Assembly: GCA_963723515.1 (NCBI GenBank)
Contig: CAVRQT010000003.1
Coordinates: 288,001 to 352,000 of the forward strand
Source of the DNA: Vulcanimicrobiota bacterium
Lineage (GTDB): Bacteria; Vulcanimicrobiota; Vulcanimicrobiia; Vulcanimicrobiales; Vulcanimicrobiaceae
DNA: 64,000 bases
Reading direction: 5' to 3'
The notes under the pieces are model-generated. The model made no database searches and was not told where the DNA came from. It saw only the letters and a program-made list of their open reading frames with translations. Numbering within the stretch: the first letter of the stretch is position 1; every line of letters starts with the position of its first letter. Made by a program: the position numbers and the translations under genes. Below are positions 1,342 to 53,670 of the stretch, in pieces.

Positions 1342-2252
1342 ACATCCACTACCGCTTGGAGTGGCGTGACGAACATCCACTCGTCTTAGCGATTGGATTC
1401 TTTGACGGCCTGCATCGTGGACACGCTGCGATTCTCAACGAACTCCGCCGGCTCCGAAAACCAGGGTATCGAACCGGCATCTTAACGTTTTCAAATCATC
1501 CGGCGACGCATTTGCGAACGGCGCCTCCGCCGTTGATTAACACCGTCGAGGAACGGCTCGGTCTGCTTGCCGATGCGGGCATCGAAGAATGTTTCTTCGT
1601 GCCCTTTGACGAGCGTATCGCGGCGCTCTCGCCAAACGATTTTGTCGATGGGGTGCTGATCGCTGCGCTTTCCGTCAGCGCTGTTGTCGTGGGGGAGAAC
1701 TTTCGCTTCGGCAAAGGCCGTAGCGGCGACGTCGCGTTTGCGCGAAGTGCGTTGGAGCGATGCAACGTCCGCTTTACCGCCGTCGCCAACCAGATCGACG
1801 GCGGCCAGAGAATTTCGAGCACGCGAATTCGTGAACTGATTGCAGAAGGGGAGATTGGGAAGGCGGATGCGTTGCTCGGACACCCATTTACGTTGCGAGG
1901 CCGCGTGATGTTAGGGGCGGGTCGCGGACGATCGTTGGGGTTTCCAACCGCAAATCTGAGCGTCAGACCGGGAAAGATTTTGCCGGTTGACGGCGTCTAT
2001 TCAGCCGTCGCTCGCCACGACGGGCGCGATTTCGCGGCGCTCGTATCGATCGGGACGAATCCGACGTTCGATGGAACGACGCGGAGCGTCGAAGCATGGC
2101 TGCGTGATTTTCGCCGTTCGATCTACGGAGAGGAGCTAGCGGTGCGAGACTTGCGCTTCGTGCGGGCTCAGCAGCGGTTTGCGAGCCCTGAGGAATTGCG
2201 CGAACAGATGGAGCAGGATGTCGTGGCTGTCGCCTACCCATCGTATGGGTAG
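1338..2252 (+). CDS. ribF: Bifunctional riboflavin kinase/FAD synthetase
   Basis: Motifs GFFDGLHRGH, GENFRFG, ISSTRIR, GRSLGFPTAN. Confidence 0.95.
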   Translation: MNIHYRLEWRDEHPLVLAIGFFDGLHRGHAAILNELRRLRKPGYRTGILTFSNHPATHLRTAPPPLINTVEERLGLLADAGIEECFFVPFDERIAALSPNDFVDGVLIAALSVSAVVVGENFRFGKGRSGDVAFARSALERCNVRFTAVANQIDGGQRISSTRIRELIAEGEIGKADALLGHPFTLRGRVMLGAGRGRSLGFPTANLSVRPGKILPVDGVYSAVARHDGRDFAALVSIGTNPTFDGTTRSVEAWLRDFRRSIYGEELAVRDLRFVRAQQRFASPEELREQMEQDVVAVAYPSYG

Positions 2253-2289
2253 AAACTTCGTGCCGTTCTCGCGCGTTGTAAGGAAGCAT

Positions 2290-2769
2290 ATGAAACGTCT
2301 CCTCCCGATCGTTGCGCTCTTGGCTGCGCTACCCAGCGCGGCGTTTGCCGGCGCTTCGGTCGGCAAGCCGGCTCCCAACTTTTCCGCTCCGCTTGCCTCA
2401 GGGGGCAAATTGACGCTATCGAGCTTGCATGGGAAACCGGTCTATTTGAACTTCTTTGCGACCTGGTGCGCACCGTGCAATGCGGAAGCGCCCGACATCA
2501 ATGCGCTGCAAAAACAGTATGCGCGCCGCGGTTTCGTCACGATCGGCGTGGATGAGCGCGAGGATGCCGACAAGGCAAAGAGCTTCGTGCACAAATTTGC
2601 GCTGGTCTATAAGGCGATCGTTGATGAGAACGGCGACGTGTTAAATCCGTACGGCGCGATCGGCCTGCCGGTGCACGTGTTCATCGACCGCCGCGGCAAT
2701 GTCAAACTGATCCGCAACGGCGAGATGTCCAAAGCGGAGATGGACTCGGCAATCAAGTCCATTTTGTAG
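2290..2769 (+). CDS. Exported TlpA/ResA-like thiol-disulfide oxidoreductase
   Basis: Signal peptide MKRLLPIV..AFA; NFFATWCAPC motif; AGGA upstream of ATG 2290. Confidence 0.9.
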   Translation: MKRLLPIVALLAALPSAAFAGASVGKPAPNFSAPLASGGKLTLSSLHGKPVYLNFFATWCAPCNAEAPDINALQKQYARRGFVTIGVDEREDADKAKSFVHKFALVYKAIVDENGDVLNPYGAIGLPVHVFIDRRGNVKLIRNGEMSKAEMDSAIKSIL

Positions 2770-2776
2770 TTTCTAG

Positions 2777-3007
2777 TGTCACACTGAGCTTGTCGAAGTG
2801 TGACTTGGAGTAAAACGTGCGTGGACACAGCCCCTTTGTCACACTGCGCTTGTCGAAGTCCCTGTGTCACACTGAGCTTACCGAAGGTCGCGGTGTCACA
2901 CTGAGCTTGTCGAAGTGTGACTTAGAGAAAATCGGGCGAAGAGAAGGTCCCGATGTCACTGCGCTTGTCGAAGTCCCTGTGTCACACTGAGCTTGTCGAA
3001 GTGTGAC
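2777..3007 (+). repeat. Left array: six forward copies of REP-like unit TGTCACACTGAGCTTGTCGAAGTGTGAC
   Basis: Copies start at 2777, 2837, 2865, 2894, 2954, 2980. Full copies (2777, 2894, 2980) have an 8-bp stem GTCACACT/AGTGTGAC around an 11-nt loop. Confidence 0.95.
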
Positions 3008-3284
3008 TTCGGCACAATTCGCGAATCGTCGCGAAGTCGCCGTTGATCAGCGCCGTCTTCTTATCGTGGCTCCAACCTTTGAGCTTCTTTTCGCATTGGA
3101 TGGCGTCCAGCACTTCGTGAAAATCTTGCGACCATACCAGCCGCACGGGCCTGCGGCCAAAAGTGTAACAGGTTGTGAAGGTGCCGTATTCGTGCTCGCC
3201 TACGCGTTTCTCAAGCTCGCTCGTGATCCCGATGTAGTATGTGCCATCCGAGCACAGCAACATGTAGACGTAATAGATTTTCAC
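2982..3284 (-). CDS. Stand-alone GIY-YIG nuclease (YhbQ/UPF0213-like), 100 aa
   Basis: YYVYML..DGTYYIGIT..LEKRVGEH..AIQCEKKLKGWS; the Tyr, Arg, His and Glu catalytic positions appear present. Confidence 0.9.
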   Translation of the reverse strand: MKIYYVYMLLCSDGTYYIGITSELEKRVGEHEYGTFTTCYTFGRRPVRLVWSQDFHEVLDAIQCEKKLKGWSHDKKTALINGDFATIRELCRSHTSTSSV

Positions 3285-3291
3285 ATGGCGA

Positions 3292-3582
3292 CATTACCGC
3301 TCGGTCACACTTCGACAAGCTCAGTGTGACACTGGGACCCTGCTCCGATGCCCCATTACCGCTCGGTCACACTTCGACAAGCTCAGTGTGACACTGGGAC
3401 CCTCCTCCGATGCCCCATTACCGCTCGGTCACACTTCGATGCTTCGACACTTCGGCATCGCTCAGTGCAGGCTATGCTCAGCACAGGCTCGCTCAGTGTG
3501 ACACAGGGACTTCCTGTAAGGCTCGATTACCGCTCGGCCACACTTCGACAAGCTCAGCGTGACACAATAGCTCAGTGTGACA
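3292..3582 (-). repeat. Right array: reverse-orientation copies of the same unit within 62-bp tandem repeats
   Basis: GTCACACTTCGACAAGCTCAGTGTGACA at 3304 and 3366, interrupted copy 3428-3503, variant at 3537, partial at 3569; tandem units start 3292, 3354, 3416. Confidence 0.95.
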
Positions 3583-3622
3583 CGGGGCCCTTCGGTGGCG
3601 GGATTTCGAAAAAGCGGCCACC

Positions 3623-5587
<1,965 letters not shown>

Positions 5588-53414: not shown

Positions 53415-53670
53415 TGTCACGCTGCGCGTAGCCTGCCCTGAGCAGCGTCGAAGCGTCGAAGCATCGAAGCACAGCGATAATCGAGCTATTCAGTGTGCTC
53501 GTGTGTCACGCCAAGTTTGTTCGGTTCGCGATTCCTGTCACGCTGAGCTTGTCGAAGCGCCGCGATAATCGTAATTAGCGTCATTATTTCCGAGCATCTC
53601 AATCAGCACGATCACGGTGCTCGACAAGCTAGTCGACAGACAGCTCAGCGTGAGATTCGATAGCTCAGTA
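53415..53670. repeat. Second cluster of the same REP-like family, with no nuclease gene
   Basis: TGTCACGCTGAGCTTGTCGAAGCG at 53536; nested variant at 53415-53470; degenerate reverse copies about 53617-53670. Confidence 0.85.

Follow-up and report, generated by a model that had tools for sequence, protein, structure and literature searches.

Does a lone nuclease gene that sits between two facing arrays of palindromic repeats belong with those repeats, or does it only lie among them? The question is raised by a locus of a Vulcanimicrobiota bacterium (assembly GCA_963723515.1), which was found in a stretch of 64,000 nt of contig CAVRQT010000003.1, positions 288,001 to 352,000, referred to here as the window. 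At this locus a gene for a single-domain GIY-YIG nuclease of 100 amino acids (positions 2982..3284, minus strand) is enclosed by two arrays of a hairpin-forming repeat, the first with six forward copies (2777-3007) and the second with five reverse ones (3304-3582), and the whole lies between two convergent host genes. The original prediction saw in this layout a likeness to REPtrons, in which arrays of repetitive extragenic palindromes (REPs) flank the gene of a REP-associated tyrosine transposase (RAYT), and proposed that the nuclease recognizes the repeat and drives its spread. The layout itself was reproduced by a search for the repeat unit, a scan for its 5′ tag, and open reading frame (ORF) calling with Pfam annotation. 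We report below that gene and repeat recur together with fixed polarity in many genomes, and that the protein probably is the nuclease of this repeat family.

Association of gene and repeat across genomes

Besides its 5′ tag, TGTCA, the repeat carries two boxes, TGAGC and TCGAAG. A scan of species-representative genomes with an 11-row alignment of closer homologs of the nuclease gave at least 585 related loci, and the best 80 of these at least 585 were used to count layouts. The proteins at these 80 loci are 46 to 58% identical to the window protein. Their record titles name Eremiobacterota, Nitrospinota, Nitrospirota, Bacteroidota, Ignavibacteriota, Acidobacteriota, Patescibacteria, Spirochaetota, and Pseudomonadota, about nine phyla, with binning errors of metagenome-assembled genomes being possible. 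As the motif we took the two boxes with 2 to 40 nt between them and counted it within 150 nt of the gene; pseudo-genes placed elsewhere in the same 80 loci served as controls. A forward motif to the left and a reverse motif to the right of the gene were found in 42 of the 80 loci and in none of the 400 control placements, so that chance does not explain the link between gene and repeat. At least one motif lay near the gene in 73 loci (24 of the 400 controls), and the opposite polarity was seen in 1 of the 80. At the UPF0213-like or other small GIY-YIG loci of relatives, a motif was nearby in 1 of 19.

In loci of simple structure, the gene-bearing unit of forward repeat, gene, and reverse repeat measures about 370 to 430 bp, and the TGTCA tag is the outermost shared sequence at both ends. 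The left motif ends 12 to 71 nt before the start codon, and the start of the right one ranges from 14 nt before to 51 nt after the point where the protein match ends. Repeat length class and protein clade were compared for co-variation, which was set aside as weak on a poorly resolved tree (25 changes, compared with 31 to 35 in five shuffles).

Closer to the source genome, a close homolog (E below 1e-20) is present in 12 of 41 relatives. A copy of the repeat core stands beside the gene in 9 of these 12 loci and on both sides in 6. One relative, G022, forms a single row in the alignments, the tree, and the relatives' counts; its protein is identical to that of public record L037, and therefore no conclusion depends on it. 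Two others, G036 and G020, add only single rows to the per-genome counts.

Structure and orientation of the repeat

The source genome assembly comprises 2.11 Mb in 4 contigs and is 88% complete. A 13-nt core of the repeat, TGAGCTTGTCGAA, occurs 103 times exactly in this 2.1-Mb genome and 0 times in a shuffle. A generalized short-form motif is found 184 times, and 95 of these fall in the 7% of the genome that long open frames leave uncovered. As ssDNA (single-stranded DNA), the complete unit folds with an 8-bp stem and an 11-nt loop (-6.6 to -6.8 kcal/mol, z -1.8 to -2.9), while most genomic copies have a 3-bp closing stem adjoining the conserved core. Conservation is strongest in the repeat interior, that is, in the boxes TGAGC...TCGAAG, and not in the stem. 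The three pairs that adjoin the core are Watson-Crick pairs in 66 to 69% of 247 distinct copies, compared with 13 to 29% when the partner is shifted. The second of them occurs as G-C in 65 copies, C-G in 52, A-T in 46, and T-A in 4, and this covariation means that the pairing, not the sequence, is what is kept.

The repeat is oriented: 124 of the 247 copies have a YGTCAY tag on the 5′ side, and 11 have one on the 3′ side. At the nuclease locus, whose repeat subfamily is fully palindromic, part of the tag is paired in the fold. Inverted doublets with a gap of at most 40 nt were found 13 times as forward/reverse and 0 times as reverse/forward, with the tags outward, which is the polarity of the arrays around the nuclease gene. 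Because doublets and gene-bearing unit share this polarity, the doublets look like non-autonomous relatives of the unit, as REPINs (REP doublets forming hairpins) are to RAYT genes.

Several further observations concern the family as a whole. Other repeat clusters in the genome contain no nuclease gene. In the window, positions 53438-53557 hold two more family copies, one of a nested AGCCTGCCC...TCGAAGCGTCGAAG type and one a tagged short form, far from any GIY-YIG gene. In relatives, the two boxes often enclose an inner GC-rich hairpin, which makes for long forms of the repeat. At two of the loci collected, L053 (1874-1951) and L062, a copy is nested between the TGAGC and TCGAAG boxes of its host copy, as at 3428-3503 of the window, which suggests insertion into the hairpin loop or slippage. 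Repeat-derived tails are seen on proteins or ORFs of the family, at the N terminus of P0007 and at the C termini of the window ORF, P0002, P0003, P0005, L041, and L047, with such sequences as ...VTLSLSK..., ...HTSTSSV, and ...HPSTSSG; the repeat thus contaminates gene calls and supplies a stop codon. A replication-strand bias of the repeats was rejected for the source genome, where their orientation on contig C3 is balanced on either side of the GC-skew switch (45:39 and 27:32). In the relative G006, contig C1 has 67 forward and 7 reverse core copies across 1.6 Mb (0.54-2.18 Mb), a bias partly inflated by same-orientation tandem arrays. The sampled GC skew of G006 switches sign near 1.3 Mb, within the forward-dominated stretch, so this orientation bias does not follow replichores.

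The nuclease and its relation to Ssn proteins

The 100-residue product of the GTG-initiated nuclease gene has one Pfam domain, GIY-YIG (PF01541, E 2.4e-14, residues 4-75), and falls in an Ssn-like subfamily. Among 26 homologs, Y7, Y17, G19, R27, and H31 are invariant and E65 is nearly so; we take these residues to be the GIY-YIG active site. The AlphaFold2 model (pLDDT 90.9) shows one compact GIY-YIG domain with C-terminal helices and a disordered tail at residues 96-100. This tail derives from the repeat, and the last 8 codons of the gene and its stop codon fall within the adjacent repeat copy. The solved folds nearest to the model are UPF0213 proteins and Slx1, and NCBIfam has no family for the protein. 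In free-standing GIY-YIG homing endonucleases of the I-TevI or Seg type the GIY-YIG domain is joined to a separate DNA-binding region, whereas the window protein is single-domain and has no such region. The source genome holds one close copy of the gene only. A second small GIY-YIG gene on contig C3 (112533-112811; positions 1480-1758 of locus L033) encodes a UPF0213-like protein of 92 amino acids and has no nearby repeat, so that it serves as an internal control.

The original prediction stated that small GIY-YIG proteins are not recognized as partners of REPs. This is outdated. In Neisseria meningitidis, SsnA, a single-domain GIY-YIG protein of 94 amino acids, binds the hairpin repeat NTS and cuts beside it (PMC11893778, Chenal et al., Nat Commun 2025). 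Cutting is restricted to ssDNA and to one strand, and SsnA lowers transformation by DNA in an NTS-gene-NTS configuration (PMC11893778). The same study found SRM repeats at 71% of homolog loci, on both sides in 42%, and likened the NTS-ssnA-NTS layout to an insertion sequence (PMC11893778). Ssn nucleases are flanked by NTS/SRM repeats and cleave them as ssDNA, and the idea of a gene-repeat pairing, sound as it is, is already in print for this sister group. In the literature searched, subscription journals being outside its scope, Chenal 2025 was the only work on Ssn or SsnA with GIY-YIG, no publication was found to contain the repeat core strings, and none besides Chenal 2025 was found to link GIY-YIG to REP, RAYT, or REPIN elements.

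The window protein resembles the Ssn proteins in several ways. Both are single-domain GIY-YIG proteins of about 94 to 100 amino acids, and both are encoded between inverted copies of a hairpin repeat that has further copies elsewhere in the genome. In both, the repeat is oriented by a 5′ tag that follows HGTCWY, which reads TGTCAC or TGTCAT in our case, and its abundance follows gene presence imperfectly. They differ, however, in that the window protein is 34 to 39% identical to SRM-flanked members and has a UPF0213-like middle region, CYT..RRPV, where those have PGFT..Y. The repeats differ as well. Ours has the conserved internal boxes TGAGC/TCGAAG with a variable or nested interior, whereas SRM has a short loop on a perfect 8-bp stem. 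The pattern published for SRM is HGTCWY N(0-2) YYVSBRH N(0-5) WNVSBRG N(0-2) RNCYNB, and only the HGTCWY tag is common to it and to our repeat.

Among solved structures, UPF0213 proteins (Escherichia coli YhbQ and Bacillus subtilis YazA; 1ZG2, 1YWL) match best in sequence and in fold, and they have the same size. They are nevertheless separated by the tree, in which the window protein stands apart from YazA and from the second small GIY-YIG protein of the genome at an SH-aLRT of 96, and by gene context, as yazA lies in the fixed housekeeping arrangement trmNF-yazA-rsmI while the context of the window gene varies among relatives. The same tree, a quick search of 124 rows and 95 columns with the root assumed on YazA, unites this subfamily with an Ssn-type clade (7 rows, of which 4 have a match to the SRM pattern within 150 nt) at an SH-aLRT of 96, apart from the YazA/UPF0213-like proteins. 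On this tree the window protein is placed in a distinct subfamily that groups with the SRM-flanked Ssn proteins and not with YazA/YhbQ-like ones.

Single homologs bear on this relation. Azospirillum lipoferum 4B is among the genomes used to define SRM (PMC11893778). Its homolog (L115, replicon AZO_p3) sits between the genes sufB and sufC, with four canonical SRM copies at its flanks, and on the tree it joins the window subfamily apart from YazA-like proteins at an SH-aLRT of 96; the window protein is 39% identical to this protein and 35% to B. subtilis YazA. A homolog of Sphingomonas parapaucimobilis, 50% identical to the window protein, has a repeat of the TGAGC...TCGAAG type on its left flank. 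Assignment to the CDD entry cd10448 (GIY-YIG_unchar_3) is one criterion for Ssn proteins. Four Bacteroidota species with this subfamily are listed as cd10448-positive with an SRM enrichment of only 0- to 1.2-fold (PMC11893778, Supplementary Data 4). An attempt to assign these flags to the subfamily failed; since the four genomes hold 4 to 7 small GIY-YIG genes each, the cd10448 flag cannot be tied to it with certainty.

Ssn-type genes also lie on a plasmid of Sphingomonas paeninsulae at rnc/era (L151, with an in-frame stop in the translated match) and on pSymB of Sinorhizobium meliloti at gltA/lpxB (L117). Together with sufB/sufC, these positions inside or between housekeeping genes indicate insertion into operons. 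In other small GIY-YIG subfamilies, Algoriphagus yeomjeoni has three near-identical tandem small GIY-YIG genes about 400 bp apart (L170, L174, L177; about 1.2843-1.2854 Mb) and Salegentibacter tibetensis has two about 390 bp apart (L168, L171), which point to further multi-copy mini GIY-YIG genes in Bacteroidota.

Likeness to REP systems

With REP/REPIN-RAYT REPtrons, the locus shares a nuclease gene that is present once and enclosed by inverted hairpin repeats, inverted doublets that are scattered through the genome with the polarity of the gene flanks, and copies that are mostly intergenic. It differs in its enzyme, which is of the GIY-YIG family and not an HUH Y1 tyrosine transposase, and in its tag, which is TGTC and not GTAG. 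A search for the Y1/RAYT transposase family PF01797 found none in the 88%-complete source genome. Of the predicted REPtron-like system without a RAYT, the layout holds, with its inverted flanks, its dispersed doublets, and no PF01797 match found; mobilization is a proposal.

REPs with CGTC or TGTC tags that lack a transposase were defined by Di Nocera, De Gregorio and Rocco in 2013 (PMC3733652). Our repeat resembles them in its unpaired 5′ tag, TGTC being named there as a common variant of CGTC, and in being palindromic, often arranged in inverted dimers, and with no dedicated transposase identified (PMC3733652). The four families described there have an 8- to 9-bp stem, a loop of 4 to 5 nt, and a CCA tail (PMC3733652). 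By comparison, our repeat has an 8-bp stem and a loop of 11 nt as folded, or of 5 nt if G.A pairs form, and the loop is its most conserved part.

Architecture of the locus

The 27-nt unit GTCACACTGAGCTTGTCGAAGTGTGAC has 6 occurrences at up to 3 mismatches in the window, all within 2778-3563, against a chance expectation of 0.00 (100 shuffles). It is exact at 2778, 2895, and 2981 on the plus strand and at 3304 and 3366 on the minus strand, and the occurrence at 3537 (minus) has 2 mismatches. Scanning for the 5′ tag TGTCAC gave forward copies that start at 2777, 2837, 2865, 2894, 2954, and 2980 and reverse copies that end at 3331, 3393, 3503, 3564, and 3582. Only three forward and three reverse copies are complete hairpins; about half of the copies are degenerate, truncated, or nested.

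On the left, the forward array begins 8 nt after the stop codon of a gene for a redoxin/TlpA-like thiol-disulfide oxidoreductase (2179..2769, plus strand; Pfam AhpC-TSA 1.6e-23, Redoxin 6.7e-22). Copy 1 (2777..2804), found by exact match and by tag scan, is a complete hairpin with a 5′ TGTCA tag and a DNA fold of -6.8 kcal/mol. Copy 2 (2837..2858), with a TGCGC box, and copy 3 (2865..2886), with TTACCGAAG, are degenerate and have no 3′ arm. Copy 4 (2894..2921) is again complete, copy 5 (2954..2973) is degenerate, with a 2-nt deletion and a TGCGC box, and copy 6 (2980..3007), complete, overlaps the 3′ end of the nuclease gene; all six are on the plus strand. Copies 1 and 2 and copies 4 and 5, with their spacers, represent a 67-nt duplication (2776-2842 and 2893-2959; 82% identical, 117 nt apart).

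On the minus strand, copy 7 (3304..3331), a complete hairpin, lies 20 nt upstream of the codon at which the nuclease gene starts and is followed by copy 8 (3366..3393), also complete; they sit in two 62-nt units, 3292-3353 and 3354-3415, that are 98% identical. Copy 9 (3428..3503) is a long form in which a further copy, 3450-3465, is nested between the outer TGAGC and TCGAAG boxes. Copy 10 (3537..3564) is near-complete, with 2 mismatches and a weak fold of -2.6 kcal/mol, and copy 11 (3569..3582) is a 5′ half only, made of the tag and the TGAGC box. Beyond it lies a gene for a ClpB-like double AAA+ ATPase (3623..5587, minus strand; Pfam AAA_2 1e-56, ClpB_D2-small 1.2e-15), which is convergent with the tlpA-like gene and upstream of the nuclease gene on the same strand. 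Rfam, searched with 2500-3900 at E up to 1, had no matching family, and no promoter was predicted at the locus. A scan for terminators detected none in the repeat arrays; its one match was inside the nuclease gene.

Insertion between tlpA and clp

The ribF-tlpA/clp arrangement is conserved across the family and the order, with clp convergent with tlpA in relatives. The gap between tlpA and clp is 0 to 60 nt in eight relatives (G013, G002, G010, and G025 to G029), compared with about 855 nt in the source genome, and close homologs of the nuclease in relatives occupy other positions. From the conserved synteny, the short gaps, and the homologs elsewhere, it follows that the unit is an insertion in this lineage and not a syntenic gene. 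The empty site that the original prediction suggested looking for in relatives exists in at least 8 of them, and the nuclease gene is not syntenic among relatives, where its context varies. In the relative G014, the tlpA-clp site holds a gene-less forward/reverse repeat pair. In G001, of the same genus, a degraded nuclease gene was looked for at this site and not found; its gap contains one repeat and an unrelated ORF, a stop-to-stop frame of 203 codons with an internal Met followed by a signal-peptide-like stretch (L120, 2086-2750). The tlpA-clp site is a hot spot for different insertions.

Evidence for and against a cognate pair

We counted motifs in 151 genomes of the phylum, which are kin, so that Mann-Whitney values are descriptive only. 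In family f1, the 40 genomes with a homolog have a median of 58.5 motifs, and 35 of them have at least 20. The 32 f1 genomes with no detected homolog have a median of 14.5 motifs, and the 79 genomes of other families have a median of 2, with at least 20 in 1 of them. Repeat-rich genomes mostly carry the gene, but 13 of the 32 gene-less f1 genomes also hold at least 20 motifs.

These 13 genomes, which include counts of 445, 154, 111, and 105, weigh against a cognate pair, as does a set of other results. A profile search of five gene-less genomes (445, 154, 111, 105, and 45 motifs), one of them a 3-contig assembly, returned weak UPF0213-like matches or nothing. Either the repeats can persist without the gene or the gene was lost from those assemblies. 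Conversely, 3 of the 12 genomes with a close homolog have 0 to 2 exact cores. BLASTP places the window protein at the same distance, 50.4 bits each, from the A. lipoferum Ssn protein and from B. subtilis YazA, and the tree is based on 95 columns, a quick search, and an assumed root. The SRM pattern matches 0 of the 3 complete forward copies, and its 9 matches genome-wide, none of which includes the core, compare with 20 to 33 in shuffles. The ends of 15 simple elements showed no target-site duplication. That the nuclease binds and cleaves the repeat is an inference. Taken together, the proposal that the nuclease recognizes the repeat and drives its spread holds up insofar as gene and repeat belong together (42 of 80 loci versus 0 of 400); its driving the spread is a proposal, and repeats persist in relatives in which no close homolog was found.

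Alternative explanations

Three further readings are compatible with a nuclease that recognizes the repeat. The unit of repeat, gene, and repeat could be an autonomous mini-transposon that moves itself and the gene-less doublets, a GIY-YIG counterpart of REPIN/RAYT or IS200/IS605. Much of what has been described fits it: the inverted ends with outward-facing tags, doublets with the polarity of the unit, gene positions that are not syntenic and empty tlpA-clp sites in relatives, a patchy distribution across phyla at about 50% identity, copies disrupted by early in-frame stops (L068, L082, L151), insertions inside operons (sufB/sufC, rnc/era), and no Y1 transposase found in the source genome. 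Yet neither a target-site duplication nor a fixed target was seen, the source genome has one close gene copy only, no recent filled-versus-empty pair was found between near-identical genomes, and G001 has a different ORF at the site. Slippage or unequal recombination, too, can make tandem arrays like the 62-nt units (98% identical) and 67-nt stretches (82%). GIY-YIG enzymes, moreover, are hydrolytic nucleases for which no strand-transfer step is known. Self-mobility of this kind is accordingly put forward as a tentative possibility. In a homing-type selfish gene, by contrast, the repeats would have come first, as targets and not products: the nuclease would cut a repeat or doublet, and host recombination would copy the gene in. 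The gene is always found at the center of a forward/reverse pair, in the place that the spacer takes in gene-less doublets, the G014 site holds just such a gene-less pair, and free-standing GIY-YIG homing endonucleases exist. We think this unlikely, given one close gene copy in the source genome despite dozens of doublets and a single-domain protein without the separate DNA-binding domain of GIY-YIG homing endonucleases; the Ssn precedent, moreover, acts on ssDNA and not on a duplex (PMC11893778).

The nuclease may instead have been domesticated to restrict or process repeat-bearing ssDNA, whether transforming, conjugative, or from replication or repair, as proposed for SsnA/NTS in Neisseria, with the repeats marking genomic regions. 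The effect of SsnA on transformation by NTS-gene-NTS DNA agrees with this (PMC11893778), as do the occurrence of one gene copy alongside many dispersed sites in a genome and the conservation of catalytic residues across phyla. Still, the gene has no syntenic position and many repeat-rich relatives lack it, as would suit a dispensable element more than a fixed host function. Domestication, too, is put forward as a tentative possibility. The remaining explanation denies recognition altogether: the hairpins would be ordinary terminator or mRNA-stability elements between convergent genes, and the nuclease gene would have landed among them by chance. REPs commonly accumulate between convergent genes (PMC3733652), the genome has repeat clusters without a nuclease gene, and repeat-rich genomes without the gene exist. 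Such a coincidence is very improbable in view of a layout found in 42 of 80 loci against 0 of 400 controls, with fixed polarity and across phyla, of the 1 in 19 flanked cases among other small GIY-YIG genes, and of arrays in which no terminator-like site was found.

Proposed function and implications

We consider it probable, from the analysis as a whole, that this repeat family has its cognate hairpin-specific nuclease in the 100-residue protein, which would act on ssDNA as Ssn does. Its recognition site would be the TGTCA-tagged hairpin that brackets its own gene and of which about 150 to 180 further copies are dispersed in the genome, mostly in intergenic positions. By analogy with SsnA/NTS, the protein probably binds the folded hairpin on one strand of ssDNA. 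Recognition would rest on conserved parts of the hairpin, the TGTCAY tag at its 5′ side together with the TGAG(C) and (T)CGAA(G) boxes, and cleavage would occur near the tag. The boxes could extend the stem by a T-A pair, a tandem G.A/A.G mismatch, and a G-C pair, which would leave a 5-nt loop. Its role might then lie in the spread of the repeat or in the restriction of incoming ssDNA. A wider picture, in which we have limited confidence, is that of a separate Ssn-like GIY-YIG clade with a TGTCA-tagged TGAGC...TCGAAG cognate site, whose hairpin-gene-hairpin unit would mobilize itself via host repair, with the doublets as non-autonomous derivatives. Such a clade might supply the missing enzyme for part of the "orphan" TGTC/CGTC REPs.

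The pairing of an Ssn nuclease with a hairpin has been known since 2025; what is new here is a different type of repeat, which the published pattern misses. If the protein cuts its flanking hairpin as ssDNA, it would represent a new recognition class among the Ssn site-specific ssDNA nucleases, with at least 585 loci. Surveys based on the SRM pattern would then undercount nuclease-repeat pairs, and whole phyla would score as nuclease positive and repeat negative. It would also account for the origin of a short repeat that is very widespread and gets into gene calls as a contaminant, and it would offer a compact system in which to ask whether a nuclease of 100 amino acids sustains REPIN-like repeats without a transposase.

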